Shown here: positions 34,335 to 55,702 of the stretch, one piece after another
How positions within the stretch are numbered: position 1 is the stretch's first letter
Layout of the letters: every line of letters starts with the position of its first letter
Assembly: GCA_023264145.1 (NCBI GenBank)
Contig: JALQTA010000001.1
Coordinates: forward strand, 15,465-79,464
DNA: 64,000 nucleotides
Direction of reading: 5' to 3'
Source of the DNA: Minisyncoccota bacterium
Lineage (GTDB): Bacteria; Patescibacteriota; Minisyncoccia; SW-4-49-11
The notes under the pieces: generated by a model
The model's input: the letters and a program-made list of their open reading frames with translations, nothing else
The model's database searches: none
What the model was told of the DNA's origin: nothing
Translations under genes and position numbers: made by a program

Positions 34335-35727
34335 GGTTATTTTATTGGTTGGAGCATTAGTGCTTTTTTCTGGAGTTATGCTTTTAGATAGAGGTATTGC
34401 CCCCTTTATTTTACTTGCCGCATTATTGATATTTGTGAGTATTATACGACTTTCAGTTCCTGCAGTATTTTATACGTTACTTATTATTCGTCCCTCCTTG
34501 GATATATTTGGTGCTTATGTTTTTGTCATATCTTCTAATTTACCAAGTATTAATATCGCAGGAATTGTTGCTCTTATATCAATTATTGTCAGTATTATTT
34601 TAATATATCGTTCTCAGAAAAGAATATTAACTATTCCTCTCAGTGCTTTATTTATATTTCTATTCTTTATATATGGGATATTTACCGTCTTATCATTGCA
34701 TCCTATCGCCTCTATCAATGAATTAATACGGGTATCCTCCTTTTTATTGATGTACTTTACTGGATATGTGGTAATTAATACAAAATATGATCTTACTCGG
34801 ATTATATGGGCTATTATTATATCATCCATTATACCAACTATAGTTGGGTATATCCAACTATTTAATGGGGCTGGTCTTTATACCAATCCCGGATTTGAGA
34901 ATCGTATAGCCGGTACCTTTGGCCATCCAAATGTATTGGGGTATTTTTTATTAATTATTATTGCGTTAATTGTCTATCTTTATTTTGAAAACCCAGCTCG
35001 GAAACCTTTATATAAGACATTATTAATCACCTATGGCGTTCTATTAGGGGTGCTTTTATTATCTACTTATACTCGAGGTGCTTGGATTGGGATAAGTTTA
35101 TTATTATTAGGAGTGAGTATTATTCGATATACCAAAAAAACACTGATTATAAGTGCGATTGCTATTCCTATTATGGCAATAAGTGCATTTAGCTATACGT
35201 GGGTACAAACGAATATTATTTATGATTTAACTCCATTAGAAGATATTTCAGTTATATCGAGAGTGGTGGGGCTTTTTAATGGGGATCCAAGTGACTCTAT
35301 TATATGGAGACAAATTATGTGGTCAGATATGTATAATAAGGCTTTAACCCGTCCTATTATTGGATTTGGGGCGGGGACTATCGAAATTATCGTAGAGGAA
35401 GTGAGGGGAGTTTCATTGGGAGCTCTAGAAGCTCATAATGATTATATTAAAATTTTGGTTGAAATGGGAGTAATTGGATTATTCTCGTATATTACATTTA
35501 TATTAGCGCTACTCTATAGTTTATTAATACGTATTCAATCAAAGCAGGATACCTTATTTTTGATTATGACTTTCTTGGTTTTAGCTATTTATTTATCAAG
35601 TATTTGGGATAATTTATTAAGACAAACAGCAGTAATGTGGATATTTTTTGGCTTATTAGGTGTGGTAATGAAATATCATACTATTCGTGCAAAAGATCCT
35701 TCAAAAGATTCTCCCACTGAGGAGTGA
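34315..35727 (+). CDS. O-antigen ligase / Wzy-family polysaccharide polymerase-like membrane protein
   Basis: 10-12 TM helices with a large loop containing RGAWIG and, further downstream, HNDYI motifs. The start is moved to MILNPS to limit overlap. Confidence 0.5.
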   Translation: MILNPSRVILLVGALVLFSGVMLLDRGIAPFILLAALLIFVSIIRLSVPAVFYTLLIIRPSLDIFGAYVFVISSNLPSINIAGIVALISIIVSIILIYRSQKRILTIPLSALFIFLFFIYGIFTVLSLHPIASINELIRVSSFLLMYFTGYVVINTKYDLTRIIWAIIISSIIPTIVGYIQLFNGAGLYTNPGFENRIAGTFGHPNVLGYFLLIIIALIVYLYFENPARKPLYKTLLITYGVLLGVLLLSTYTRGAWIGISLLLLGVSIIRYTKKTLIISAIAIPIMAISAFSYTWVQTNIIYDLTPLEDISVISRVVGLFNGDPSDSIIWRQIMWSDMYNKALTRPIIGFGAGTIEIIVEEVRGVSLGALEAHNDYIKILVEMGVIGLFSYITFILALLYSLLIRIQSKQDTLFLIMTFLVLAIYLSSIWDNLLRQTAVMWIFFGLLGVVMKYHTIRAKDPSKDSPTEE

Positions 35728-36940
35728 TAGTTTTTTGAGCAAAGTCTTGTATACGCAGAGAAGATTTTTGATGATATGAATTATATATTTCATCATTACA
35801 TAATATCAATTCCATAGCAGATACGAGATACTGTTCAGACTGAGATAAGGAATAGGGTTTTTCTGGGAGAGTATTATGATCAAGGGGAATTAATATTCCA
35901 TATTCTGCTTGTTCTATTATGGAGGTTTTGACGGTAATATCGCTACTTGGAGCCAATAATTCTCGTGGACCAGAATCAGAATCCGAGGCAATAACAGGAG
36001 TTCCAATGATTAAGCTTTCAACAAGTACATTGGGAAGCCCTTCATAATGAGAAGGAAGAATAAGTACTTTAGCCTGAGCAATAAATGCAAATGGGTTTTT
36101 CTGGAATCCCAGAAAGTATATATCATAATTATCCTTAATATCTTGATTATCCCATACGGTATATACCTTGAGTCCTAAACTTCTTGCAAAATTAAGATGA
36201 TATTCTCTCAAGGGGCCATCCCCCAAAATAATATACCGAATATTAGGATGAGTTTTTTTGAGACTATGAAATGCAAGAATACTATGCCAAAATCCTTTTT
36301 GACGAGATAATCTTCCGGTTGATATACATACAGGGTTTTGATATAGAGAAGCATATTCACCAATATCCTGATGAGCTAATGCTCTAATACCATCTATATC
36401 AAAAGGATTGAGAATAACTTGAATCTTATCTTTAGGGAGGCCTAATTGAATCAGATTGGCTTCAATTCCCCGAGAGACCGCAATAATACGAGTATGAAAT
36501 CGCTCTAATAATTTGACAAGACCTAAATAAATAGTACTTCTAAAGAATACTCCTTCCTGAGTATAATTAGAGGTGAGATGGCTATGAATAACTCCAATAG
36601 ACAAATGGTGAGAGAATGGTTTTGCTAAAATATTCACAAAATCAGCTCTTTCAAGATGACTAATACATAGATGTATCTGATTTTGCTTAAGATATTGAGC
36701 TAGCTTAAAGGGAAGAAGAGGAAATTGTAATAATTTTTTGAATTTAGAGGATTGTCCTTTGATATCTGATAAAAAATGTATCGAGAAATTATCGGGCATA
36801 ATATAGGAATCTTGATGTTCAAGGGCAATAATATGGACTGTATATCCTAAATCTTGGAACATCTGAGCTTGAGTAATAGCTATTTTCTGAGCTCCACCTC
36901 CTTCAAAATTGGTAATTAAGATAGCAATAGATTGTTTCAT
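35681..36940 (-). CDS. family 1 (GT4-type) glycosyltransferase
   Basis: GRLSRQKGF and LPSHYEGLPNVLVESLIIGTPVIASD GT1 C-terminal motifs. The start is set at MKQSIAIL (ATG at 36938..36940). Confidence 0.65.
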   Translation of the reverse strand: MKQSIAILITNFEGGGAQKIAITQAQMFQDLGYTVHIIALEHQDSYIMPDNFSIHFLSDIKGQSSKFKKLLQFPLLPFKLAQYLKQNQIHLCISHLERADFVNILAKPFSHHLSIGVIHSHLTSNYTQEGVFFRSTIYLGLVKLLERFHTRIIAVSRGIEANLIQLGLPKDKIQVILNPFDIDGIRALAHQDIGEYASLYQNPVCISTGRLSRQKGFWHSILAFHSLKKTHPNIRYIILGDGPLREYHLNFARSLGLKVYTVWDNQDIKDNYDIYFLGFQKNPFAFIAQAKVLILPSHYEGLPNVLVESLIIGTPVIASDSDSGPRELLAPSSDITVKTSIIEQAEYGILIPLDHNTLPEKPYSLSQSEQYLVSAMELILCNDEIYNSYHQKSSLRIQDFAQKTITPQWENLLKDLLHE

Positions 36941-37011
36941 ATAGCTATAGTATAACGTATTTTTAGAATATTGACGATAGTAGGATATATACATAACCTT
37001 GTTGTATACTA

Positions 37012-37040
37012 TTGACAAAATGGCTATTTTATGCTATTAT
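37012..37040 (+). promoter_or_regulatory. island promoter copy 1: TTGACAAAATGGCTATTTTATGCTATTAT (-35 TTGACA, 17-nt spacer, -10 TATTAT)
   Basis: Read directly from the sequence; 28 nt upstream of the island gene A start. Confidence 0.55.
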
Positions 37041-37068
37041 CACACAGAACCTTATGCCTCGGAGGCAT

Positions 37069-37992
37069 ATGTACATTCTCAAACTGATGATGGGGACTCT
37101 GGTCCTCATCGCAACCGCCATCCCGGTTATGGCACAGGGCCTTCCCGTTACCTGCAAGCAGGTGGGAGACAAGGCCGTCATCTCCACCCCCGGTTTTTCG
37201 GGGTCGTGGATGAGCTTCGGATCAGGGCGCTTGAGCCCAGCCTCGACGGAGACGGTAATTCCGAACTTTCGGAATGCACCGTTTCCCTTGGTCGGGAACA
37301 AGGCTGTGAATCCTGGTGATCCGCAGTCTTGGTTCAAGATCGAGAGGGTGACTCCCGAACAAAAGCGTGCCTCCGGGTGTGGCTTTGTTCAGGCAGGGGT
37401 CCTGATCCCGGGAAGCAACTGGACTCCGGTGCAGATCGCGAATACCCGTTCGCAACTTTCTGCGCAGGGAGGAGTGCTCGGAAATCCCGCTACCTTTGCC
37501 GTGGTTCCTGTCCCCGCCGTAGGACCGGCGACCCGTTCCAGGGTGATTATCTCTCGTAAGGGAGATGCCATCACCTTGGAACTGCCTCCTTCCACGGAGA
37601 GCAGTCAATGGGTAGTTCAGCGGGGACAGTCCGGCCCCATTGTTGGACGACCCACCACGGGTATCGAGGGGCTTCATCGCACCTCGACCTTCCTCAGCGC
37701 CTATCAGCGCTTTGAGGCGGTGGTGAAGACCAATCGTGGCTGGCCTGTCACCGTGCCCCTGACTCTTCAGGGTCTGCGGATTACTGGCACCTTGCCAGCA
37801 GATTGGCATTCCTTCGCCATTGTGGCAAGGGGATCAGGGCAGGACGCCTGGTTGCAGGTGGGCCCCGCCATTGAGCAGGGGCTTACCCAGCATGATGGTG
37901 TCCCAGATGCTTTCTGGGGAGGGCGGACGGACAATTCGTTGTTTACCGTTCCTGGGAACAACCCCAACCCGGGGTATTTCTGGACCCGCTGA
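37069..37992 (+). CDS. GC-rich island gene A: secreted protein of unknown function (307 aa, signal peptide MYILKLMMGTLVLIATAIPVMAQG)
   Basis: RBS GGAGG 4 nt upstream of the ATG at 37069 and a clean signal peptide. About 60% GC against a ~30% background. The track ORF 37012..37992 is trimmed to the RBS-supported start. Confidence 0.55.
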   Translation: MYILKLMMGTLVLIATAIPVMAQGLPVTCKQVGDKAVISTPGFSGSWMSFGSGRLSPASTETVIPNFRNAPFPLVGNKAVNPGDPQSWFKIERVTPEQKRASGCGFVQAGVLIPGSNWTPVQIANTRSQLSAQGGVLGNPATFAVVPVPAVGPATRSRVIISRKGDAITLELPPSTESSQWVVQRGQSGPIVGRPTTGIEGLHRTSTFLSAYQRFEAVVKTNRGWPVTVPLTLQGLRITGTLPADWHSFAIVARGSGQDAWLQVGPAIEQGLTQHDGVPDAFWGGRTDNSLFTVPGNNPNPGYFWTR

Positions 37993-38010
37993 TCTTCCGT
38001 TAACAAGTTC

Positions 38011-38045
38011 GCCGCCAGCACCCAGTGCTGGCGGCTTTTTCTTTT
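38011..38045 (+). terminator. intrinsic terminator GCCGCCAGCAC-cca-GTGCTGGCGGC followed by TTTTTCTTTT
   Basis: 11-bp perfect GC-rich stem plus a T-run, 19 nt after the gene A stop. Confidence 0.6.
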
Positions 38046-38072
38046 GACTTGATATATAGGGAAATATATGGT
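38044..38072 (+). promoter_or_regulatory. island promoter for gene B: TTGACT-17-TATGGT (weaker variant)
   Basis: TTGACT at 38044..38049, a 17-nt spacer and TATGGT at 38067..38072; it abuts the preceding terminator T-run. Confidence 0.35.
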
Positions 38073-38106
38073 ATGGTGAAATAGCAAATTATGAGGTTTT
38101 CCTCTC

Positions 38107-38547
38107 ATGCAAAGGCTCATCTGTTCTTTGGTGACTGTGGTTTCATTGTCCGTTCCTTCATCTGCTTTGGCTCAGTATTACCCATATCAAGGAGGTGGTA
38201 CTCAATATGGCCATCAACAGAAAGATCCTGACTATCTGGAACTCCGGTTTCGAGATGGTCGGCGGGTAGTTACATACCCTGTTTCTGGTACTCGACATGA
38301 AGATGTTGCTGCTCAGCACGGTATTGCCTACTGTGAGCAATATTGGAGAGAAGTGGTACCTCCTCCAGGATTCGGATACGCTGCAGTGATCTCTCAGGGG
38401 GCTTGTAGGGGTAGGCAGATCAATCACCAACCGATTAATCGGTACCCCGATCACAAACATCAACGTCGATGGGTAAATCCTGTTCCAAGGCAACATCTTC
38501 CCATTTTGAATGGAGGAAGTAACTGTCTGCTTTTCTGTTTTAACTAG
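38107..38547 (+). CDS. GC-rich island gene B: small secreted Cys-containing protein, paralog of gene C; the 3' end may read through past the original stop
   Basis: RBS GAGG 10 nt upstream of the ATG. Signal peptide MQRLICSLVTVVSLSVPSSALAQ. It shares a ...V/I..P.RPGFGYAA.I.Q C-terminal block with gene C. About 45 codons after that block are lower-GC and have no counterpart in gene C. Confidence 0.45.
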   Translation: MQRLICSLVTVVSLSVPSSALAQYYPYQGGGTQYGHQQKDPDYLELRFRDGRRVVTYPVSGTRHEDVAAQHGIAYCEQYWREVVPPPGFGYAAVISQGACRGRQINHQPINRYPDHKHQRRWVNPVPRQHLPILNGGSNCLLFCFN

Positions 38548-38589
38548 ATGTGTTTCTGTCCCATACAACCGTTTTCTTAATCTCTTCGC

Positions 38590-38623
38590 GCCGGTAGTGG
38601 TAAACTGCCGGTATTTTTTTTTG
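38590..38623 (+). terminator. hairpin (G)CCGGTAG-tggtaaa-CTGCCGG(T) followed by TATTTTTTTTTT
   Basis: 7-8 bp stem with one G-U pair and a 10-T run, 43 nt after the gene B stop. Confidence 0.45.
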
Positions 38624-38633
38624 CTCTAACCTC

Positions 38634-38662
38634 TTGACAAAATGTATAAAATATGCTATAGT
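38634..38662 (+). promoter_or_regulatory. island promoter copy 2: TTGACAAAATGTATAAAATATGCTATAGT (-35 TTGACA, 17-nt spacer, -10 TATAGT)
   Basis: Read directly from the sequence; 27 nt upstream of the gene C start. Confidence 0.55.
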
Positions 38663-38689
38663 GCCATCGTCAACACTTGGAGCAATCCA

Positions 38690-38998
38690 ATGAAGTGCCT
38701 TTCCAGCTTCGCCAGCGTTCTGCTGGCTTCCACCTTGCCCCTCCTCGCCGTGGCTCCCGCCATGGCAACCCCTCAGCCCCAGGAGGGTCGGGGGATGCTC
38801 CCCGATCTCATTCTTCTCAAGTTCGCCGATGGGCGAATGGAGGAGGTGTCCAATCCCTCCCGTGCTGCGGGGGGGCGGCCCCACGAAGTGGTGGCCGCTG
38901 AAAAGGGGATTCCGACGGCCTGCCAAGCGTGGCAGGAAATCCCGTCTCGGCCAGGATTCGGATACGCTGCACAGATCACCCAGATCTGTGGTAACTGA
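38690..38998 (+). CDS. GC-rich island gene C: small secreted protein (102 aa), paralog of gene B
   Basis: RBS GGAG 7 nt upstream of the ATG at 38690. Signal peptide MKCLSSFASVLLASTLPLLAVAPAMA. It ends ...RPGFGYAAQITQICGN. The track ORF 38642..38998 is trimmed. Confidence 0.5.
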   Translation: MKCLSSFASVLLASTLPLLAVAPAMATPQPQEGRGMLPDLILLKFADGRMEEVSNPSRAAGGRPHEVVAAEKGIPTACQAWQEIPSRPGFGYAAQITQICGN

Positions 38999-39021
38999 GC
39001 CTGCTCAGCAATCGTCCAATC

Positions 39022-39049
39022 GCCCCCTGCACTGCAGGGGGCTTTTTTT
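39022..39049 (+). terminator. intrinsic terminator GCCCCCTG-cactg-CAGGGGGC followed by TTTTTTT
   Basis: 8-bp perfect GC stem plus a 7-T run, 23 nt after the gene C stop. Confidence 0.6.
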
Positions 39050-39085
39050 ATTCTCTTATGATACTATTTCAGATGTTGTTATCTA

Positions 39086-39114
39086 TTGACAAAATAGCTA
39101 TTATATGCTATAAT
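39086..39114 (+). promoter_or_regulatory. island promoter copy 3: TTGACAAAATAGCTATTATATGCTATAAT (-35 TTGACA, 17-nt spacer, -10 TATAAT)
   Basis: Perfect -35 and -10 hexamers with a 17-nt spacer; 35 nt upstream of the gene D start. Confidence 0.6.
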
Positions 39115-39149
39115 CTCAACGTTCTGTACATTCTCAACGGAGTTTTCTT

Positions 39150-40280
39150 ATGAAACTTCTCAAACAACTTCTCCTGCCCATTGCAGCATGTGCTGCGGTG
39201 TTTGGAGGAATGCCTGTGGAAGCGCAGGTTGAATCGCTCTCCCCTCGAGAGCAACTCCAGCAGCTGCGTGCAATGCGCAAGGCTGCTGAAGCTCGCAATG
39301 CGAATGCGGGTGAGGTGCAACAGGTGTCCCAACCTGTGAATCCTCCCGTCCAGCAAGCTCCACCGGGTCCACCGCCCGTAATGGCGGCAATTCCGGCCCC
39401 CGCTCCCGTGCTGGCCACCCCTCCTCAAAAGGAGCAGGGGCCTTCCACTTCTGGTATCGTGGTCCCTCCTCGGGACTCGATTCCCCAGCAGGGAGAGGGG
39501 CAGTGGAAGCCCCTCCGAGTTCACACCGAATTCCGTTCCCTTCCGCGGAATACGGCTTTCGATGTGAAGGCTGAGCTGGGCACCCAGAATGGGTGGATGT
39601 TTGGGGCTCAGTTCGTGACTCAGTCTGGATCTTTCACAGGTGAGAACCTGAAGGAGATCTGGAAGGGGTCCTATACGGATACCCGGGCAGAGTTCTGGGG
39701 AGGCCGTCATTGGTCCTCCCAGGATTCTAAAACCCGGTGGTCGGTGAACGCCTTTGTGCGGCAGCTGACACATACCGATTCTGGTGAAGGCAGGAGTCGT
39801 CCGGGCAATCCGGATTCCTACACCTACACCTGGAGGAATCCGGTGAAGCCCCTCACCCAAGTGGGTGTGAGAGCCAGGGTCGAGCATGACCTCATCCGGA
39901 CGGAGAGTCAACAGCTCACCGTTCACCTCAAGGGTGAGGTGGCTGCCACTGTCTCAGGACAGTCTGGCTTGGCCTACGATGTCCAGACAGGCGTCTGGTA
40001 TCGGACGGCACGGATCGAAGCCTATGCTGAAGCCGGTGTGAATAATACCGGCGGGTACGCTAATGGTTACGGCCGTTATTACCTGACTAAGGGTGGTCAG
40101 CTCAAGCCCTTCGTGGAGGTGCGGGGTGAGGTTGGTACTGGCTACCACAACGCCCAAGTGGGCGCTGGTGTCCAGGTGGGGATCGGCAAGAACGCTTACG
40201 CCGAAGGTGTGCTTGGCTACAACGCTGGCACCTCTGGCAATGGCATGGCTGTCATCACCCGGTTCGGTTTCCGATTCTGA
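39150..40280 (+). CDS. GC-rich island gene D: secreted Pro/Gln-rich-linker protein with a beta-barrel-OMP-like C-terminus (...AVITRFGFRF)
   Basis: RBS GGAG upstream and signal peptide MKLLKQLLLPIAACAAVFGGMPVEAQ. A PxxP/Q-rich spacer is followed by about 250 aa of Gly/Tyr/Thr-rich sequence with alternating hydrophobics. It ends in the aromatic C-terminal Phe motif typical of outer-membrane beta-barrels. Confidence 0.55.
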   Translation: MKLLKQLLLPIAACAAVFGGMPVEAQVESLSPREQLQQLRAMRKAAEARNANAGEVQQVSQPVNPPVQQAPPGPPPVMAAIPAPAPVLATPPQKEQGPSTSGIVVPPRDSIPQQGEGQWKPLRVHTEFRSLPRNTAFDVKAELGTQNGWMFGAQFVTQSGSFTGENLKEIWKGSYTDTRAEFWGGRHWSSQDSKTRWSVNAFVRQLTHTDSGEGRSRPGNPDSYTYTWRNPVKPLTQVGVRARVEHDLIRTESQQLTVHLKGEVAATVSGQSGLAYDVQTGVWYRTARIEAYAEAGVNNTGGYANGYGRYYLTKGGQLKPFVEVRGEVGTGYHNAQVGAGVQVGIGKNAYAEGVLGYNAGTSGNGMAVITRFGFRF

Positions 40281-40364
40281 CGCAAAATAGAAACGATAGT
40301 AGCTATCTAATCGGAGTAATCTGAGAAGAGAAGTTGCCTTGACCGTTTCTGGTTTTGAATATAT

Positions 40365-40392
40365 CCCTCGTTGTTCGCAGCGAGGGTTTTTT
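40365..40392 (+). terminator. hairpin CCCTCG-ttgttcgcag-CGAGGG followed by TTTTTTATTT
   Basis: 6-bp stem (extendable with one mismatch) plus a T-run, 85 nt after the gene D stop. Confidence 0.45.
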
Positions 40393-40467
40393 ATTTGTTG
40401 AAAAGGTTAGACAGAGAGGGGATAATATGATATTGTTAATATAGATTATCTTATTGTTAATAAGTCT

Positions 40468-41649
40468 ATGAAAATTGCTTTTATAGGGCAAAAAGGGATT
40501 CCTGCTCTTGGTGGTGGTGGAGTTGAAAATTATGTTGACCATATTGCAGTAAGACTTGCACAGCGAGGACATGAAGTTATTGTTTACACTCGTAAAGCAT
40601 ATGCTCCGGAGGGTATGTATAAACATGTCAAGGTTATCGCGACATCTGGTATTCCTACCAAGAGTTTAGATGCGATTACGCATACCTTTACGGCATTATG
40701 GAAGAGTTTTTTTATCTCTGATTTAGACGTTTTGCATGTCAATTCAGTAGGGCCTGCTTTATTGATTCCTTTTGCACGGTTTGGATTTTTGTTAAAATAT
40801 TTAGTTACGGGTTCATATACAAAGGTCGTATTTACCTTTCATAGTGCTGATTGGTATCATGGGAAATGGAATTTATTTGCAAAATCTATGCTCAAATTAG
40901 GAGCCTGGACTGGTTGTGTCTTTGCGGATGAAGTGATTACGGTATCAAAGAGTTTACGGTATCTTGCCTATAAACAATTTGATGTACGAGCTACCTATAT
41001 CCCTAATGGTACGGTATTTAATCATATTACCTCGGATTCAGAGTTAGCTCAATTTGGACTCAAAAAACGAGGGTATATTGTTTTTATTGCCCGCCTCATT
41101 CATCATAAAAATGCTCATATTTTGATACAGGCCTATCAAAAAATGGCAAAAAAATATGGAAAAAAGCTTGTGATTGTAGGAGGAAATTCCCATACTCCTG
41201 AATATGAGAAATATCTGCATGAATTAGCTCAAGGGGATAAGAATATTATTTTCACAGGGCATCAATCAGGGAGAACGTTAAAGCAATTATTTGCCAATGC
41301 GGCTATTTATGTATTACCCTCATCGTCTGAAGGCTTATCTATTTCTCTCTTGGAAGCTGCAAGTTATGGAGTACCTGTGGTTGTCTCTAATATACGAGAA
41401 AACCGTGAAATTGTAGGAGATCTTGGACATATTGCGGAAGTTGATAGTGTGGTCTCATTAGCTCATACGATTGAAGGAGTTTTGATGGATTATCGGGGAG
41501 CCTTAGAATTAGCAGATATGTTGCAGGCAGAAATTAAATATCATTATGCCTGGAATAATATTGTAAGAGCTTTAGAAAATGTATATAAAAGAGATTCAAA
41601 TCAATATAAAGGAGCTAGTATACAAGTTACTCCAGCTTTGAAATATTAA
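40468..41649 (+). CDS. family 1 (GT4-type) glycosyltransferase
   Basis: N-terminal IPALGGGGVENYV and C-terminal LPSSSEGLSISLLEAASYGVPVV motifs. Confidence 0.65.
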   Translation: MKIAFIGQKGIPALGGGGVENYVDHIAVRLAQRGHEVIVYTRKAYAPEGMYKHVKVIATSGIPTKSLDAITHTFTALWKSFFISDLDVLHVNSVGPALLIPFARFGFLLKYLVTGSYTKVVFTFHSADWYHGKWNLFAKSMLKLGAWTGCVFADEVITVSKSLRYLAYKQFDVRATYIPNGTVFNHITSDSELAQFGLKKRGYIVFIARLIHHKNAHILIQAYQKMAKKYGKKLVIVGGNSHTPEYEKYLHELAQGDKNIIFTGHQSGRTLKQLFANAAIYVLPSSSEGLSISLLEAASYGVPVVVSNIRENREIVGDLGHIAEVDSVVSLAHTIEGVLMDYRGALELADMLQAEIKYHYAWNNIVRALENVYKRDSNQYKGASIQVTPALKY

Positions 41650-47566: not shown

Positions 47567-48640
47567 TTGATGTTAGGAATTGGGTCAAAAAATTCATTTG
47601 GAATTGATATCGGGACACAAACGATAAAAATTTCTGAAGTTAATAAAAAAAACGGACGGATATTGGTTGAAAATTATGCGATATGGAGTAATGATATCAC
47701 CAATATTATTCAAGAAAAAAGTGGGGAGCATGCTCTTTCAGTGGAGAAAATTGTATCTATCATCCAGATGATGCTGAATAGTGCTCAGATGAATATCAAA
47801 GAGGCTTATATGGCAATTCCATCATATTTAGCTTTCTCCACGGTGATTGAAATGCCTGCCCTGTCTGCAGAAGAACTTATCACCGCAGTCCCATTAGAGG
47901 CGAAGCAACATATTCCTGTTCCCTTTGATACGGTACAATTAGATTGGGTTAATTTAGGTAAGAAAGCCTCAAAAGACACCTTAAATATTTTACTTATTGC
48001 AATTCCTAATAATGTCATTACTAAGTATATGGAAGTGAGTCAGGCATTAGGAATTACCATAAAAGGATTTGAACTTGATGTTTTCTCTGTAATACGATCA
48101 ATTGATTTGCCACCTAAGCAAGTATGTATTGTGGATATGGGAGCACGTACAAGTACTGTAAGTATTATTAATCCTGATCAACAATTACAAGTCTTACAAT
48201 CATTTGACTTTGGAGGAAATCATATTACAGAAGCGATTTCTCAGCTAAAGCATATCTCTTTAATAGAAGCTGATTTGTTGAAAAAAAATAATGGTATCTC
48301 AGGCTCTGATACTGAAGTTTCGGCTGCAGTTCAAACACGAATAAGGGGATTTATTACCAATGAAGTTGTTCGAATGATTCGTCAAACACAGGAAAGAAGT
48401 GACTTTGTGATTGAGGATATTATTTTGCTCGGTGGTTTTGCAAAAATGTCTGGAATACAGGAGTTTGTTTCAATGATTATAAAAAATAATTTTAATACCG
48501 ATAAACCAATAGCTGTTTCTATGGCAATTCCTACTCCTAATCTAACTATAAAGGGAGTTAAAGATGCAACGATAATACACTCAACCTGGCAAGATCTTGT
48601 ATTATCAATCGGTATTGGCTTAAAAGATTACAATATATAA
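47567..48640 (+). CDS. pilM: type IV pilus assembly protein PilM (actin-like ATPase)
   Basis: N-terminal FGIDIGTQTIKISEV and an actin/FtsA-like fold; first gene of the pilMNO block. Confidence 0.65.
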   Translation: MMLGIGSKNSFGIDIGTQTIKISEVNKKNGRILVENYAIWSNDITNIIQEKSGEHALSVEKIVSIIQMMLNSAQMNIKEAYMAIPSYLAFSTVIEMPALSAEELITAVPLEAKQHIPVPFDTVQLDWVNLGKKASKDTLNILLIAIPNNVITKYMEVSQALGITIKGFELDVFSVIRSIDLPPKQVCIVDMGARTSTVSIINPDQQLQVLQSFDFGGNHITEAISQLKHISLIEADLLKKNNGISGSDTEVSAAVQTRIRGFITNEVVRMIRQTQERSDFVIEDIILLGGFAKMSGIQEFVSMIIKNNFNTDKPIAVSMAIPTPNLTIKGVKDATIIHSTWQDLVLSIGIGLKDYNI

Positions 48641-48641
48641 T

Positions 48642-49175
48642 ATGGATAATATTTCATTTATTCCTGCTAATCAAAAAAATATCAATGGACAGGTTTTGCC
48701 ATACTCGAACTCAAAACCCTACAGCACAACCTTTATGTGGATAACTATATTCTTAGTAATATACGGAATAGTGGTTGCGTTAGGGTATTGGTTTTTTATT
48801 GCTGAGCGTAAGTCAATGATAACAGAAAAAATTACAGATCTAGATAGTCAAAATGCAAACTATTATCCACAAGGAAATTTAGAGCAAAGTTTTTTTAATA
48901 TAACAGATATTATACAAAAACGAAGAGATATCAATAAGATTATTCAATCTGTGGAAGCAACCTTTATTCCTAATTTAAGAGTTAAAAATATTGTATATAT
49001 TAAAAAAAATAATACGCTTTTATTATCTGCAGTTGCTCCCACAATTAGTGATGTCACAACTCAAGTAGCTGCAATCAATAAATTACCTGAAGTATTGCCT
49101 TCAGATGCGCCTTCCATTGAGCAATTAGAAAATAATGAAGGAGCATCTTTTAATCTTATTATTAATTTGAAATAA
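48642..49175 (+). CDS. PilN-like type IV pilus assembly protein
   Basis: Bitopic (single TM near residue 45) and located directly after pilM; assignment is by synteny and topology. Confidence 0.4.
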   Translation: MDNISFIPANQKNINGQVLPYSNSKPYSTTFMWITIFLVIYGIVVALGYWFFIAERKSMITEKITDLDSQNANYYPQGNLEQSFFNITDIIQKRRDINKIIQSVEATFIPNLRVKNIVYIKKNNTLLLSAVAPTISDVTTQVAAINKLPEVLPSDAPSIEQLENNEGASFNLIINLK

Positions 49176-49180
49176 TATCT

Positions 49181-49750
49181 ATGAATAAAGAAAATATCTA
49201 TTTCAATATCGCCTTTATTGTAGTATTTGGTTTTTTACTAGCTACCATTAACTCAGTAGTATCTGCTCGATTTTCGTCTGAGATGAAAAGTATCAATGAG
49301 CTTGAAAGACAATTACAAATTAAAGAAGCTTTTGCAGCTCAAAAATCTCCTCAAGAACTATCTGAAAGAATGAAAAAATCTATACCTGCTTCTCTTGATA
49401 AGTCTGCTATAACTCTTGCTCTTGATCAATTTGCTCGGGAGTCTAATGTTAGAATGCCCTCTTTGTCAGTAGAAGAGACTAAAAAACAAGCAGTATCTTT
49501 AGGAGATACCGCGGGCACTTCATCAGTATCTGAAGCCGTTAATATCCCTGTAGAGATGACAAATACTCTTAGATCTGCAACTATTGAAGTTTCCATTGAA
49601 GGAGGAAGACGAGAGATATATGCTTTTATTCAAAAAATATTAACAGCAAATCCATATATGGAGGTGACAGACCTTTCTCTTTCCTTTGATAAAGGTCTTG
49701 GTGCTGTAGAAGGGAATATTACCGCAATAACATATTATACTGGACTATGA
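49181..49750 (+). CDS. PilO-like type IV pilus assembly protein
   Basis: N-terminal TM plus coiled coil, following the PilN-like gene; assignment is by synteny and topology. Confidence 0.35.
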   Translation: MNKENIYFNIAFIVVFGFLLATINSVVSARFSSEMKSINELERQLQIKEAFAAQKSPQELSERMKKSIPASLDKSAITLALDQFARESNVRMPSLSVEETKKQAVSLGDTAGTSSVSEAVNIPVEMTNTLRSATIEVSIEGGRREIYAFIQKILTANPYMEVTDLSLSFDKGLGAVEGNITAITYYTGL

Positions 49751-49903
49751 ACAATATCATAAAATATCAAAAAACTATTGTAAGATTAAGCTGTTTTATT
49801 ATTACATTATACTTTTTATATACATTAGGGATGATTATTTTTGGAGATATAATTATGAATACAGGGTCTCCTATACCAGATATATCTATTATTAGTAAAT
49901 ATT

Positions 49904-51634
49904 TTGGTTTATAATATGATGCAATTTGATTTAAAAAAAACATTTGAAGTTCTTAAAAATGACTATCCAGATATATTTAAGGATATCCAATCTTTTGAGT
50001 CTTTACCAGAATCTGAAATCCGAACTTTTTTAGAAAAGAATTTTACAGAAAAAGAATTGTTAAAAGTCAATGCTGAGCTATTGGGGCTTACTTTTATTAA
50101 TTTAGAGGATAAGACTATTCCAAAAGAACTTTATACTATCCTTCCTTTTACGATTATGAAGCGATATACGGTAGCACCTTTTGCTCAAGAGGGGAATACC
50201 ATATATATTGCTATTGCTGATCCATATAACTATACGGCATTACAAGCAATTCGATTTGCATTTCAAGATAAGAACTTATCCTTTGAACTTCATGTAGCCA
50301 CTGAAGAAGATATTAAACAATTACTTCGTAAATCTGAAAACTTAAGTAATACGGTTACTGAGACATTAGAGGAATTTCATCAAAAAAATGAATCAGCTCA
50401 AGTATTGCCCGACGTTGATGAAATGACCACTGAAAACCTTGAGACAGCTCCTATTATCAAAATTGTATCCGTTATTATTAAAAATGCGGTAGAGGGAGGC
50501 GCCTCTGATATTCATATTGAGGGAACAGAAGAAAATGTACGTGTTCGATTTCGTGTAGATGGGGTGTTACATACGAGTCTTGTATTGCCAAAAGAAGTAT
50601 ATTCTCCAGTAGTTGCTCGTATTAAAATTTTATCTAATTTAAAAATTGACGAACAGAGAAAACCTCAAGATGGTAGATTTTCTATTTTAGAAAAGGATAA
50701 AAAAGTTGACTTCCGTGTCTCTACTTTTCCTACTCAATATGGAGAAAAAGTAGTATTGAGAATTTTAGATACTTCAAATGGTATTCGATCTATAGAAGAA
50801 TTAGGTTTTATGGGCCCTAAATTAGCAATGATTCAGGACGCCATTACCAAACCATTTGGAATGATTCTATTGACAGGACCAACAGGATCAGGAAAATCTA
50901 CTACGGTATATACATTATTATCTCAAGTCAATAAAGAAGATATTAATATTGTAACTCTTGAAGACCCTATTGAATATTATTTATCCGGGGTCAATCAGTC
51001 TCAAGTAAAGCCAGAAATTAACTATACCTTTGCATCGGGACTTCGCTCTATTTTAAGACAAGATCCAGATGTCATTATGGTGGGGGAGATTCGAGATGGT
51101 GAAACTGCGGGACTTGCCGTACAGTCAGCCTTAACAGGTCATATTGTGTTTTCTACTCTTCATACTAATGACTCTCCTGGAGCTATTCCACGACTTATTG
51201 ATATGGGGGTAGAGCCATTCTTATTATCAGCTTCTCTTCAAGTAGTAATTGCGCAAAGATTGATTCGTAAATTATGTAATGAGTGTAAGAAAGAAGTACC
51301 ATTAGAAGAAAAAGAGAGAGAGTATATTAAAAAATCTCTTGATACCTTGACTCCAGAATATATCTCTTCTGTATATAGTGGAAATTATGAAAGTATCTAT
51401 GTTCCTGTGGGATGTCCTAAATGTTCCAATGGATTTAAAGGAAGAATGGCTATCTTTGAAATTGTCTCAATGACAGAAGAGTTACAAAGCATTGTATCTA
51501 AAAATTTTAGTGAAACTGAAATTATGGATTATCTCAGAAGAAATGACTATGTAACCTTAAAACAAGATGGAATCTTTAAGGTACTTAATGGATACCTTTC
51601 ATTACCTGAGTTATTAACATCCATAGAAATATAG
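49904..51634 (+). CDS. pilB: type IV pilus assembly ATPase PilB (GspE family)
   Basis: N-terminal GSPII-like domain, Walker A LLTGPTGSGKSTT, Asp/His boxes and a tetracysteine motif (CNECK...CPKC). The start codon is uncertain; MMQFD at 49916 is equally plausible. Confidence 0.8.
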   Translation: MVYNMMQFDLKKTFEVLKNDYPDIFKDIQSFESLPESEIRTFLEKNFTEKELLKVNAELLGLTFINLEDKTIPKELYTILPFTIMKRYTVAPFAQEGNTIYIAIADPYNYTALQAIRFAFQDKNLSFELHVATEEDIKQLLRKSENLSNTVTETLEEFHQKNESAQVLPDVDEMTTENLETAPIIKIVSVIIKNAVEGGASDIHIEGTEENVRVRFRVDGVLHTSLVLPKEVYSPVVARIKILSNLKIDEQRKPQDGRFSILEKDKKVDFRVSTFPTQYGEKVVLRILDTSNGIRSIEELGFMGPKLAMIQDAITKPFGMILLTGPTGSGKSTTVYTLLSQVNKEDINIVTLEDPIEYYLSGVNQSQVKPEINYTFASGLRSILRQDPDVIMVGEIRDGETAGLAVQSALTGHIVFSTLHTNDSPGAIPRLIDMGVEPFLLSASLQVVIAQRLIRKLCNECKKEVPLEEKEREYIKKSLDTLTPEYISSVYSGNYESIYVPVGCPKCSNGFKGRMAIFEIVSMTEELQSIVSKNFSETEIMDYLRRNDYVTLKQDGIFKVLNGYLSLPELLTSIEI

Positions 51635-51683
51635 TCAAATATATAAAAGTATGATACTATCAATATATGATAAATAAATACCT

Positions 51684-52061
51684 ATGAAACATAATATACT
51701 CCTGGTTGAAGATGATAGCTTTATTACCCAAATGTATGCTACTAAAATTGATGAATTGGGGTTAAGTGTTGTAACAGCATCAGAACAAGAAGAAGTAAAA
51801 AAAGCTTTAAAATCAAATAAAAAATTCAATCTTATCTTACTTGATTTGGTTCTTCCTGATGTGAGTGGCTTTGATATTTTGAAGTGGATAAAAGGACAAG
51901 ATGCTCTAAAAGATATTCCTGTTATTGTTCTCAGTAATTTATCTTCACAGGCTGATATTAATCAAGCCTTTGAGCTTGGGGTAGTAGACTATGTAGTGAA
52001 ATCTAATTATACGCCAACTGAAGTGATGAGAATTGTACAGAAATACTTGCCAGCTACTTAA
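51684..52061 (+). CDS. single-domain response regulator (CheY/PilH-like receiver)
   Basis: 125-aa receiver with LLVEDD, LILLDLVLPD and KSN motifs and no output domain. Confidence 0.6.
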   Translation: MKHNILLVEDDSFITQMYATKIDELGLSVVTASEQEEVKKALKSNKKFNLILLDLVLPDVSGFDILKWIKGQDALKDIPVIVLSNLSSQADINQAFELGVVDYVVKSNYTPTEVMRIVQKYLPAT

Positions 52062-52082
52062 ATCTAATTAATAAAAATCAAT

Positions 52083-53156
52083 ATGCAAATCAATTTACCC
52101 GATATTATTACTCAAATTGTAACGGCGAAAGGATCAGATATTCATTTAACCACCGGAAGTAAGCCGATATTAAGAATAAAAAATCGATTAATTACCTTAG
52201 ACAATCATGAAGTTCTTACAAAGGAGGGATTAGACGAATTTTTAAATACTGCTATTCGACCAGATCAAGTTACTCAATTATATGCAGGGAAAGAGCAAGA
52301 TTTTGCCTATACTTCTTCAGATGGAGCTTATAGATTTCGTGTCAATGCTTTTATTGCTCAAGGAAATCCTAATTTAGTAATGAGATATTTACCATCTGAA
52401 ATTCTGACCTTTGAGCAATTGGGACTTCCTACTATTATGCATCAATTCAGTCAGTTGATGCAGGGATTTGTATTGGTAACTGGGCCAACGGGATCTGGAA
52501 AGTCAACAACATTAGCTTCAGTAATTAATGAAATTAATCATACCAGAGATGTAAAAGTGGTAACGATTGAAGATCCTATTGAGTTTATATATCAATCAGA
52601 TAAAAGTATTATTACCCAAAGAGAAGTTGGATATGATACGGAAAGCTTTAGTGGGGCTTTAGAATCCGCCTTTCGTCAAGATATTGATGTTATTCTCTTA
52701 GGGGAAATGAGAGATTTAGATACAATGAAAGTAGCAGTTACGGCTGCTGAGACCGGGCATTTAGTATTCTCAACCTTGCATACTAATAGTGCTGCTCAAT
52801 CTATTGATCGAATTATTGATACTTTCCCCACCCATCAACAGGGTCAGGTTCGCTCTCAGATATCAACCTCCCTACAAGCAGTAGTATCTCAGAGATTAAT
52901 TCCTACTATTAAGGGAGATTTAACTCCAGCACTTGAAATTTTATTAGCAAATAATGCAGTAAAGAGTCTCATTCGTGAAAATCGTATTTATCAATTAGAC
53001 ACCGTGATTGATACCCATCGTAAAGATGGCATGATTTCTATGAATGTATCTCTGTTTGATTTGATTCGTACAGGAATTGTATCTTATGAAACAGCTTTGT
53101 TGTATTCTCCTGATCCTGTGAGTTTAAGAAATATGTTAAAAAGATCAACTATATAA
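52083..53156 (+). CDS. pilT: twitching-motility / pilus retraction ATPase PilT
   Basis: 357 aa, Walker A VLVTGPTGSGKSTT, and the PilT-typical AIRNLIRE-like helix (VKSLIRENR). Confidence 0.8.
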   Translation: MQINLPDIITQIVTAKGSDIHLTTGSKPILRIKNRLITLDNHEVLTKEGLDEFLNTAIRPDQVTQLYAGKEQDFAYTSSDGAYRFRVNAFIAQGNPNLVMRYLPSEILTFEQLGLPTIMHQFSQLMQGFVLVTGPTGSGKSTTLASVINEINHTRDVKVVTIEDPIEFIYQSDKSIITQREVGYDTESFSGALESAFRQDIDVILLGEMRDLDTMKVAVTAAETGHLVFSTLHTNSAAQSIDRIIDTFPTHQQGQVRSQISTSLQAVVSQRLIPTIKGDLTPALEILLANNAVKSLIRENRIYQLDTVIDTHRKDGMISMNVSLFDLIRTGIVSYETALLYSPDPVSLRNMLKRSTI

Positions 53157-53165
53157 AACATTATT

Positions 53166-54383
53166 ATGGCAAAATTTAACTATTTAGCAAAAGCACAAGA
53201 TGGAAGTTCTCGAAAGGGGACGGTTACGGCATCGAATTCAGATACTGCCTTAAGTACCTTGCAGTCCAATGGTCTGATTGTTATTTCTCTACAAGATGCC
53301 AATGCTCAGTCTGTATTCTCTCAAGACCTAGAAGTATTTAATCGAGTAACTGCCCGAGAATTGGTAATATTTTCACGAATTTTGGCTACATTTCTTGAGG
53401 TGCAAATTCCTCTTGTTGATGCTATGGCGATGTTAGCTGAGCAGAATAAGAAAAATAAATATTTTACTTCGGTTCTTGCCCAAGTAATTACTGATTTACA
53501 AGATGGAAATCTTTTATCAGAAGCTTTATCAAAACATCCCAAAGTTTTTGATAGATTATATATCTCTATGATACGGTCTGGAGAAGCTTCAGGAGGATTA
53601 CAGGAGACATTGACCTATATGGCAGATTATCTTGAGGATCAGTATGAGCTCAATAATAAAATTAAGGGAGCTTTAGCCTATCCTATATTTGTGTTATTAG
53701 TATTCCTGGTTATAGGAATTGGTATAGCATACTTTATTCTTCCTCAATTAGTAGATGTCCTTCAAAGTCTTGGTACTGATACTGAGCTTCCATGGACAAC
53801 TCAACTGATTATTTTAGGATCCAATATTATTCAAAATTATATTTGGTTTCTATTAGGAGGGATTATTATTTTATTAGGAGGAATTTGGGCCTTCTTAAGG
53901 ACAGAGGCTGGGAAGAGGTTTAGTGATACCTGGAAAATTAGACTTCCTGTATTTGGAAGTTTATTTACCAAAATGTATGTAGCACGTTTTTCTACCAATA
54001 TGAAAACTCTTTTACAAGGAGGGGTTCCTATTATTATGGCATTAGAAATTAGTTCTGATGTGGTAGGAAATTATGTCTTTGAGGGTATAATTAAAGAGGC
54101 TATCGTAGAGATTAAAGGAGGAGCTGTAATGTCAAAAGCTTTCCTAAATCATGCTGAATTTCCTCAGATTGCTTCACAGATTATATCGGTGGGAGAGAAG
54201 ACTGGTAAGATGAATTCCGTTCTCGAGACATTAGCTCGATTTTATAAGAGAGAAGTTGATGTAGTGGTCGATAACTTAACCACATTAATTGAACCAGTAA
54301 TGATTGTGATACTAGGGATTGGGGTTGCTATATTTGTGATCTCAATTTTGATGCCAATTTATAATGTGGCTGGATCTATTTAA
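53166..54383 (+). CDS. pilC: type IV pilus inner-membrane platform protein PilC (GspF family)
   Basis: 405 aa with two GspF repeats, each followed by TM segments. Confidence 0.75.
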   Translation: MAKFNYLAKAQDGSSRKGTVTASNSDTALSTLQSNGLIVISLQDANAQSVFSQDLEVFNRVTARELVIFSRILATFLEVQIPLVDAMAMLAEQNKKNKYFTSVLAQVITDLQDGNLLSEALSKHPKVFDRLYISMIRSGEASGGLQETLTYMADYLEDQYELNNKIKGALAYPIFVLLVFLVIGIGIAYFILPQLVDVLQSLGTDTELPWTTQLIILGSNIIQNYIWFLLGGIIILLGGIWAFLRTEAGKRFSDTWKIRLPVFGSLFTKMYVARFSTNMKTLLQGGVPIIMALEISSDVVGNYVFEGIIKEAIVEIKGGAVMSKAFLNHAEFPQIASQIISVGEKTGKMNSVLETLARFYKREVDVVVDNLTTLIEPVMIVILGIGVAIFVISILMPIYNVAGSI

Positions 54384-54417
54384 TATAACGTAATATGAAG
54401 AAGGGGGGTGTAAATAA

Positions 54418-54810
54418 ATGAAGCAATTAAAAAAAGGATTTACACTTATCGAGCTATTGGTGGTAATTGCAATTATTGCTATATTAGCTTCTGTGGTATT
54501 GGTAAATGTAAATCAAGCTCGTAGAAGGGCACAAGCAGCAGCTATCAAGTCAGCATTATCTCAATTAAGAACTGATAAAGAGTTAAACTTTAATGGTACA
54601 AATTATCCTTTGACACCAGCAAATTCTCAAATTCGAGCTACAATATCAGCGAATAATGGAACTTTTGCTGAAACTGCAACTCCTGGTCCAGCATATTTTG
54701 CGGCATCTACCGTCCCAGGTGAGAACGCATTTTGTGTAGATAGTACAGGGGTTGCTAGAACTTTAGGAACAACCGCTACTCCACCTACCACAGCTACAGC
54801 ATGTCCATAG
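54418..54810 (+). CDS. pilA: type IV (major) pilin
   Basis: Class III signal MKQLKKG|FTLIELLVVIAIIAILA with Glu at +5 and a C-terminal Cys pair. Confidence 0.7.
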   Translation: MKQLKKGFTLIELLVVIAIIAILASVVLVNVNQARRRAQAAAIKSALSQLRTDKELNFNGTNYPLTPANSQIRATISANNGTFAETATPGPAYFAASTVPGENAFCVDSTGVARTLGTTATPPTTATACP

Positions 54811-54847
54811 TTCAAATTACGATGTATAGATAAGAGATTTAACCCTC

Positions 54848-55702
54848 TTGTCTATCATGATAATTGGAACACAATATATGATAATAGGTATTTGGATATT
54901 TTTTAGTATTATTGGCCTTGGAATTGGGAGCTTTCTTAATGTCGTTATCTTTCGGATGGAGACAGAAAAAAAGTTCTGGAATGGAAGGTCTGAGTGTATG
55001 CATTGTCACCATACATTAGCCTGGTATGAATTAATTCCAGTACTTTCTTATATTCTACAAAGAGGGAAGTGTAGAGAATGTGAAGTCTCATTATCTCCTC
55101 AATATCCTCTTGTAGAGATAGGTACTAGTTTATTGTTCGGCGGAGTAGCCTATCTTTATGCTCCAGACCTTAGTGCGATAGTAGGGTTATCCTGGATAGA
55201 TTATGTCTATGCAATGCTTGTATTGATTCTGGTTACTCAATTGATGATTATTTTTGTGTATGATGTACGGTATCAGTTGATACCCGCAATACAATTAAGA
55301 GCAATACAAGTCTTAGGCTTGATATGGTTTATACTTCATTATTATCAAAATCGTATTGTATCAGATTCCTGGTTAACGGTACTGTTGAGTGTGTCAATTG
55401 TATTATTTTTATATATTGTTACCAAAAAACAGGGAATAGGGTGGGGAGATGTAGAGCTATTCGCAGGACTTGGTTTTTTTATCCCCTTTATGTGGTTTGT
55501 CCCATTTTTCTTTGGGTCATTTATTATAGGAACCATATGGGGGCTTACCGTAATGATAATCAATCATAATAATTCTTTAAAACAAAAAATTGCTTTTGGC
55601 CCAAGTATTATTGTTTCTTTTGTGATTATGTATAGTATTATTCAGCTCAATATTGTACCTTCTGTTAATTTATGGTATTATTTAATTATTCCTAATATAT
55701 AA
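54848..55702 (+). CDS. pilD: prepilin peptidase (A24 family)
   Basis: N-terminal Cys tetrad CMHC...CREC and polytopic membrane domains. Confidence 0.7.
   Translation: MSIMIIGTQYMIIGIWIFFSIIGLGIGSFLNVVIFRMETEKKFWNGRSECMHCHHTLAWYELIPVLSYILQRGKCRECEVSLSPQYPLVEIGTSLLFGGVAYLYAPDLSAIVGLSWIDYVYAMLVLILVTQLMIIFVYDVRYQLIPAIQLRAIQVLGLIWFILHYYQNRIVSDSWLTVLLSVSIVLFLYIVTKKQGIGWGDVELFAGLGFFIPFMWFVPFFFGSFIIGTIWGLTVMIINHNNSLKQKIAFGPSIIVSFVIMYSIIQLNIVPSVNLWYYLIIPNI

Follow-up and report, generated by a model that had tools for sequence, protein, structure and literature searches.

Paralogous exported proteins with a predicted beta-grasp domain in a GC-rich island of a Minisyncoccota genome

The stretch of DNA considered here, 64,000 nucleotides (nt) of contig JALQTA010000001.1 in the Minisyncoccota assembly GCA_023264145.1 (positions 15,465 to 79,464 of the forward strand), is referred to throughout as the window and harbours two neighbouring genes for small exported proteins, called B and C. 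An earlier note, made from the letters of the DNA, had taken the two for paralogues that share a compact cysteine-containing domain of a family it did not recognise, and had regarded the end of B as damaged; the first view is borne out, while the second is contradicted by the relatives of B. B and C are tandem paralogues sharing a two-cysteine domain of about 60 residues: BLASTP aligns them with 36 identities in 94 positions (38%, E-value 9e-15), and the profiles of the B and C families, each built from its own orthologues, match one another in hhalign with a probability of 98.6% (E-value 7e-16). The two genes have the following parts.

38107-38547, + strand: gene B, 146 amino acids (aa)
38107-38172, + strand: B signal peptide, residues 1-22, cut after ALA, as read from the sequence
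38227-38406, + strand: beta-grasp domain of B as predicted by AlphaFold, residues 41-100, with Cys76 and Cys100
38365-38385, + strand: 21-nt block in B, identical to the block in C
38407-38547, + strand: B tail, residues 101-146 and the stop codon, ending NGGSNCLLFCFN, predicted disordered, rich in Arg, His, Asn, Gln and Pro
38690-38998, + strand: gene C, 102 aa, with a signal peptide at residues 1-26, a predicted beta-grasp domain at about residues 36-102, and Cys78 and Cys100
38951-38971, + strand: 21-nt block in C, identical to the block in B

A longer open reading frame (ORF) listed for C begins at ATG 38642, which falls within C's own promoter, and the start of C is placed at 38690. Both proteins carry what reads as a Sec-type signal peptide, in agreement with the earlier note: MQRLICSLVTVVSLSVPSSALA in B, ending in ALA before a Q, and MKCLSSFASVLLASTLPLLAVAPAMA in C, ending in AMA before a T. 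A22 and Q23 of B are near-invariant in the alignment of the B family. The two peptide strings quoted in that note are exact, C does stop after ...ICGN, and B continues beyond the end of C without a match for 46 codons, close to the 45 or so that had been estimated.

No Pfam, NCBIfam or PDB relative was found for B, C or the adjacent genes A and D, and for the shared domain of B and C no family was returned by a Pfam search with E-values up to 5 or by an NCBIfam search with E-values up to 1. A profile search of 1.84 billion representative proteins recovered only family members and one weak match, a ubiquitin-like repeat protein; a search of 5.8 billion proteins with B gave eight relatives (P0001-P0008), seven of them full-length, and the C family comprises ten clusters with 54-99% identity to C. 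No homologue outside this lineage was found. The family appears to be a new, lineage-restricted orphan of a familiar structural kind.

The shared domain and the two architectures

AlphaFold applied to full-length B gave predicted local distance difference test (pLDDT) scores of 89-94 over residues 41-100 and below 50 over the signal peptide, linker and tail (31-37 in the tail), with strands at 42-47 and 53-56, a helix at 64-70 and two further strands at 78-83 and 91-97. The model of C residues 36-102, made with 19 family sequences, had a pLDDT of 93.7, a predicted template modelling score of 0.79 and a beta-beta-alpha-beta-beta order (strands 4-9 and 15-20, helix 30-36, strands 44-48 and 57-63 in model numbering). 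In Foldseek searches of PDB and viral models, almost all matches were UBX, ubiquitin-like, SUMO or protein L domains (probability at most 0.99, template modelling (TM) score 0.5-0.6), UBXD7 UBX, the ubiquitin-like domain of HOIL-1, ubiquitin and SUMO being the best of the ubiquitin-like and UBX kind; the search with the B model additionally listed PRC2/SUZ12 chains. The models thus point to a beta-grasp fold for the shared domain, without membership of any known sequence family being claimed.

The domain has the beta-beta-alpha-beta-beta order of ubiquitin-like and UBX domains within some 60-75 residues, and to the eye its beta1-turn-beta2-helix stretch, LLKFADGRMEEVSNPS..PHEVVAAEKGIP, looks similar to that of ubiquitin; the topology of the ubiquitin-like superfamily is recovered by AlphaFold and Foldseek, whereas a significant profile relation is not. 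B and C differ from these domains in being Sec-exported, in having two conserved cysteines and one strand fewer than ubiquitin, and in lacking a C-terminal Gly-Gly (C ends ...ICGN, and the domain of B continues into the tail), and they would work in the bacterial envelope, not as modifiers in the cytosol. Protein L and the B1 domains of protein G likewise have a four-strand, one-helix beta-grasp of about 60 residues on exported bacterial proteins, and protein L chains gave the highest target-normalised TM-scores (0.54-0.60), but B and C have a single domain, no sequence similarity to these proteins, no PDB sequence match, no tandem repeats and no LPXTG motif, carry a probable disulfide and give no sign of a vertebrate host.

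The likeness to ubiquitin could be taken to mean that the domain is a module captured from a eukaryote and secreted as a host-mimicking effector, which would explain the foreign GC (guanine plus cytosine) content described below. The sole match outside the family among the 1.84 billion proteins is indeed of a eukaryote-style ubiquitin-like repeat protein (a summed E-value of 6e-5 for its seven repeats), ubiquitin and UBX are among the structural matches, and the E-type protein that occupies the place of C in some strains weakly matches the Raf Ras-binding domain (E-value 1e-3). The similarity is, however, marginal (hhalign probability 35% against one ubiquitin-like repeat unit and 1.3% against ubiquitin), Sec export and the probable disulfide point to the envelope, and the C-terminus lacks a di-glycine. 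A freshwater plankton metagenome is the source of at least one relative, no association with a host is known, and genes for type III, IV or VI secretion were not seen in the window. We consider this origin very improbable.

Each family has two cysteines, the first following the helix and the second closing the last strand, whose positions in B and C are offset by one residue in opposite directions and which would form one conserved disulfide after export. D42, H64, E65, Q78, W80 and Q97, among others, are invariant in both families, and the domain of B is 65-87% identical to L017, a syntenic locus of a relative, at the nucleotide level.

B and C represent two stable architectures of one exported family with this predicted fold. 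The C type consists of a signal peptide and the domain and always stops two residues after the second Cys; since all C orthologues (ten, 54-99% identity) end at the same place, in ...CGN, ...CN or ...CSR, 2-3 residues past that Cys, the short form is native. The B type consists of a signal peptide, a Gln-rich linker, the domain and a low-complexity tail of 44-54 residues with a Gly run and a Cys pair, and this tail is equally native. It follows the domain in all seven full-length homologues (P0001-P0007, 49-92% identity), it is present in the B genes at the syntenic loci L003, L006, L017, L019, L021, L026 and L029, and it aligns in frame across B orthologues from a Q.NH..N..P...H start, through a variable middle rich in Asn, Gln, Gly, Tyr and His, to a Gly run and then a Cys (NGG..C). 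In P0008 and in a 131-aa protein of L024 (1694-2089), the signal peptide and tail of B flank another central domain, an arrangement called B2. The presence of the tail in every B orthologue and around the other domain of B2 marks it as native to B, and the latter also marks it as a module older than B's present head domain. The central domain of the B2 type (L025 463-795, which is P0008, and L024 1694-2089) has four Cys, in a pattern ..DTC..V.SQGL.C.Y..TRTH.., and apparently lacks the last strand (PGFGYAA...).

The earlier note had supposed, to the contrary, that B once ended like C and that the loss of its stop codon, a frameshift or a collapse in assembly near 38400-38420 had opened a non-native, AT-rich readthrough. 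This supposition drew on the early stop of C, two residues past the domain, against the 46 unmatched codons of B, and it would also suit the predicted disorder of the tail and its fast change (8 non-synonymous and 1 synonymous differences between the window and L026). It is contradicted by the in-frame tail of the B orthologues from several species, long extensions being just what the note had named as evidence against its own view, and by the B2 proteins. The assemblies disagree with it too: contigs of two others that cover B, L001 (37708-39558) and L002 (37946-38845), each have one mismatch to the window, outside B, so that three assemblies give an identical B sequence; a further exact match, L022 (38607-43280), does not reach B. 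The B of L026, 95% identical in nucleotides, keeps the reading frame, and the other two frames of the window's tail are closed by stops. Nor does B become progressively AT-richer towards its end, as had been stated: GC at third codon positions (GC3) is 0.38 and GC 0.44 in the tail, against 0.34 and 0.48 in the domain, and the higher AT content of B relative to C holds along its whole length (GC3 0.35 against 0.71). A broken B is thus close to excluded; nothing in the gene looks damaged, and it should be annotated at full length.

The tail of the window lineage (the window, P0001 and P0008) stops about 9 codons earlier than in other B orthologues and ends NGGSN-CLLFCFN where the others have NGGGG-C-x12-15-C, only the last few residues being different. 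The end of the tail measures 7-17 residues, with no helix of transmembrane length, and no PEP-CTERM, GlyGly-CTERM or MYXO-CTERM-type signal was matched in NCBIfam with E-values up to 1. The module of Gly run, Cys, 12-15 residues, Cys and stop is kept in P0002-P0007, L017 and L021 and recurs in the distant B2 protein of L024 (CLFKKWTRDGGFAIGNC), and its loop is cationic and aromatic; B might on these grounds be a pro-protein that releases a disulfide-closed C-terminal peptide after the Gly run (CLYKQWNRKSGFQVGNC-like, 14-17 residues in most orthologues) with an antimicrobial or signalling role, C being an unrelated free domain. Bacteriocin-like products are often encoded by strain-variable loci. 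Yet the loop of the window lineage is reduced to CLLFCFN, the precursor has a Sec signal peptide and not the double-glycine leader of bacteriocins and pheromones, its Gly run lying near the C-terminus, and NCBIfam matched it to none of its peptide or bacteriocin families. The island and its flanks showed no C39 peptidase/ABC exporter, no immunity gene and no maturation enzyme, and a C39 transporter was likewise absent among the window genes scanned. A released peptide therefore seems a rather improbable product of B.

The identical block in B and C

The string CCAGGATTCGGATACGCTGCA, which encodes PGFGYAA, is identical in B and C. The earlier note was right about the existence of a shared block, but the block is 21 nt long, not 18, and lies at the positions listed above, not at 38372 and 38954; the copies are 586 base pairs apart. 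The 21-mer is absent elsewhere in the window, and a double occurrence did not arise in any of 100 shuffles. At residues common to B and C, the codon is the same in about 31% of cases upstream of the block but in nine out of nine within residues 87-97; seven agreements in seven codons would have a chance probability of about 3e-4, before correction for position. The block is unlikely to be due to chance.

Comparison between lineages sharpens the picture. The C of L021, 83% identical to that of the window, carries the same 21-mer, while the B of L021 reads CCAGGCTTTGGTTATGCTGCA (CCA GGC TTT GGT TAT GCT GCA). Other B orthologues have TTT, GGT and TAT codons at the block, L026 excepted, whose B has the window's version, and other C orthologues encode GFGFAAE or GYGFVAE with GGC, TTC and GCC codons. 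Because B and C of the same genome differ in L021, L019 and L017, at 4-8 of the 21 positions, the sequences show no general constraint at the nucleotide level, and the identity is specific to one lineage. A short patch of ectopic gene conversion would be the simplest account; the argument comes from this comparison of lineages and from the codon counts. Within the block, the P, the Y and the GCA codon of C look B-derived, and the TTC, GGA and TAC codons of B look C-like.

Chance, or selection acting alike on the nucleotide or codon string of both genes, could also produce such an identity, given that no part of the domain is more conserved than GFGYAA, that all B genes have GCT GCA and some C genes GGA TTC, and that the window's B departs from other B genes at 3-4 synonymous sites only. 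Such an explanation does not sit well with the differences between B and C of the same genome in L021, L019 and L017, with the run of nine identical codons after a stretch of low agreement, or with the fact that the window's C leaves its own family consensus (P, Y, GCA) exactly within the block and towards B. We judge it unlikely, and prefer gene conversion.

The island and its variation between strains

B and C belong to a four-gene island whose further features are these.

37050-40290, + strand: GC-rich island of 3.3 kb with genes A, B, C and D, exported-protein genes that appear separately transcribed
37012-37040, + strand: A promoter, TTGACA, 17 nt, TATTAT, with TG upstream of the -10, a member of a repeated cassette
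37069-37992, + strand: gene A, exported, 307 aa, of no known family, with a conserved signal peptide
38011-38045, + strand: A intrinsic terminator, conserved in L025 and L026
38044-38072, + strand: B promoter-like site, TTGACT, 17 nt, TATGGT, in a region 77-83% identical to L017 and L020
38590-38621, + strand: B intrinsic terminator, highly conserved in all relatives, the distant L024 included
38634-38662, + strand: C promoter, TTGACA, 17 nt, TATAGT, with TG upstream of the -10
39022-39052, + strand: C intrinsic terminator, a hairpin and T-run
39086-39114, + strand: D promoter, a perfect TTGACA, 17 nt, TATAAT, with TG upstream of the -10
39150-40280, + strand: gene D, exported, 376 aa, with a signal peptide, a short helix, a Pro-rich linker and a C-terminal region rich in Gly, Tyr and Asn
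40365-40395, + strand: D intrinsic terminator, a hairpin and T-run

The island lies between two AT-rich GT4 glycosyltransferase genes (35681-36940, - strand, and 40468-41649, + strand) in a polysaccharide setting, with Wzy_C, the two GT4 genes and DUF4012 in the window and Wzz upstream in L003 and L017. Its GC content of 0.55-0.66 stands against 0.31-0.39 in the rest of the window and 34% in the genome, and its GC3 (A 0.66, B 0.35, C 0.71, D 0.62) against 0.21-0.28 in seven host genes and about 0.22 genome-wide. The same island occupies the syntenic site in L003, L006, L017, L019/L020 and L024, and relatives with the same arrangement and GC pattern have RecG and RF1 78-83% identical to those of the window. 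No phage or plasmid match was found, and no donor lineage can be named for its GC excess.

Promoter-like and terminator-like signals accompany each island gene, the promoters being near-consensus for sigma-70, so that B and C read as separate transcription units. A 45-nt promoter cassette with an extended -10, TTGACAAAAT...TATGCTATNNT, precedes A, C and D (37000-37044, 38622-38666 and 39074-39118); a weaker copy lies at 40396-40440, and the cassette family is otherwise absent from the 64 kb. The start of A is set at ATG 37069, since the TTG given as its start at 37012 belongs to the -35 hexamer. A hairpin in the 5′ untranslated region of A (ATGCCTC-GG-AGGCAT, 37054-37071) covers the GGAGG ribosome-binding site and reaches ATG 37069; it could be a translational control element. 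As to D, its 40 homologues all fall within this lineage, none with a Pfam domain; it ends RFGFRF, the ...GFRF ending and the terminal Phe being invariant among homologues, and this C-terminus resembles the C-terminal signal of outer-membrane beta-barrels.

Between the window and L017 or L020, nucleotide identity is 75-83% in the promoters, signal-peptide codons and terminators, against 20-48% in mature A and 23-42% in the tail of B; at the protein level, mature A is 28-38% identical to the slot-1 proteins of relatives. Between L017 and L024, the identity is 91% for RecG and only 41% for D. The third slot keeps the promoter and signal peptide of C while the mature domain is C, E, C2 or A-like according to the strain: L003 (10550-10939), L006 and L029 (1679-2038) have the unrelated E protein there, L025 combines the B2 type with a further domain, C2 (931-1200), and L026, whose B is nearly that of the window, differs at the 3′ end of A and joins the signal peptide of C to an A-like N-terminal domain (969-1322). 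One B allele occurs next to C in L021 but next to E in L029. In sample ERZ27267563 (L001), the island is present as a fragment of 1851 nt broken inside A and D, which is consistent with strain-level variation of the island in the community. By these sequence comparisons, the island behaves as a hypervariable mosaic locus with conserved regulatory scaffolds, and selection may favour its diversification, as in the surface-polysaccharide locus that surrounds it.

Known hypervariable surface-antigen and O-antigen loci similarly have conserved flanks around deeply divergent, exchanged alleles in a Wzz/Wzy/GT setting. The present island differs from them in that each orphan gene has its own scaffold of promoter, signal peptide and terminator, and in that its cassettes lie about 25 GC points above the genome. 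As an observation apart, a 10-mer, ACGATAGTAG, brackets the island at 36974-36983 and 40293-40302 (2 in the window against 0.04 expected); it sits within an imperfect direct repeat of 17 nt and is absent from the relatives' loci.

Possible roles of the exported proteins

B and C could be abundant envelope proteins, periplasmic or at the surface, that act as small binding modules. Candidate ligand contacts would be D42, H64, E65, Q78, W80, Q97 and the PGFGY loop, with B held or presented by its disordered tail of Asn, Gln and aromatic residues and C free.

The polysaccharide locus allows a more specific proposal, namely that B and C are accessory subunits like the SLBB (soluble-ligand-binding beta-grasp) domains of known exporters and serve a lineage-specific polysaccharide export system, with D as the outer-membrane beta-barrel and the glycan of the Wzz/Wzy/GT4 locus as the ligand. 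SLBB domains of Wza-type proteins are, like the domains of B and C, beta-grasp domains of the envelope encoded in polysaccharide loci; the island lies inside a Wzz, Wzy_C, GT4 and DUF4012 locus, D ends like an outer-membrane barrel, and the genes checked include no recognisable Wza-type (OPX) export protein. Export systems composed of an OPX protein and a separate beta-barrel are known in other bacteria. B and C are nonetheless small, free-standing and strain-variable, none of A to E matches SLBB (PF10531) or Poly_export (PF02563) with E-values up to 5, the best 50 Foldseek matches are ubiquitin-like, UBX or protein L folds and not Wza, and export machinery is normally conserved whereas these genes are swapped between close strains. 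This proposal is improbable in our estimation, and the present data favour neither it nor the released peptide nor the ubiquitin mimic.

The account that best joins the observations, and that we hold to be moderately probable, is that B and C are a paralogous pair of exported beta-grasp proteins, B with a native tail, marked by a patch of gene conversion and serving as envelope binding modules in a mosaic island. Several points weigh against it. The Foldseek E-values are weak (0.02-0.1), the hhalign comparison with ubiquitin is not significant, and neither the Pfam search nor hhalign against ubiquitin links the domain to any beta-grasp family at the sequence level. The direction of the conversion is ambiguous, and its statistics rest on one short tract. 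In the closest pair, the window and L026, the domain has 3 non-synonymous and 6 synonymous changes, against the 8 and 1 of the tail, and this ratio suggests that the tail is under weak constraint or diversifying selection, so that the precise order of its residues may be of little consequence. Strains combine B and C independently of each other, the two are not obligate partners, and their function as binding modules is itself a proposal drawn from sequences and models.

A wider account, possible but doubtful, would see in the B/C pair the trace of a cassette-exchange locus. Four AT-rich scaffolds would serve as expression sockets and recombination anchors for swapped orphan domains, the cassettes of about 60% GC (GC3 0.6-0.7) would be kept over long times in a genome of 34% GC by GC-biased gene conversion at a hot spot or by import from an unsampled GC-rich pool, and the B tail with its Cys loop would be a portable anchoring or presentation module that different head domains have in common. 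The most unusual feature of the locus is in any event the island itself, 3.3 kb at some 25 GC points above the genome, in which the proteins vary more between species than the promoter cassettes and terminators around them, and in which strains that otherwise show 95% identity nearby have exchanged entire mature domains. If its GC excess is kept by recombination, the island would offer an uncommonly clear natural setting in which to study GC-biased gene conversion or cassette exchange; if its proteins are surface-exposed, they would be candidates for the recognition of phages, predators or partners in an uncultured freshwater lineage.

Two further observations concern the surroundings. A type IV pilus cluster at 47567-55702 encodes PilM, probable PilN/O, PilB, probable PilT/C, a pilin and a prepilin peptidase, with no PilQ secretin gene between PilO and PilB; this absence suggests a single membrane, which is hard to square with a D that ends like an outer-membrane protein. 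The hydrophobic ORF of 57-67 aa that in relatives separates D from the downstream GT4 gene (L006 2738-2941, L017 11111-11284 and L024 5081-5272) is missing from the window, where no more than 188 nt (40281-40467) lie between the two genes.

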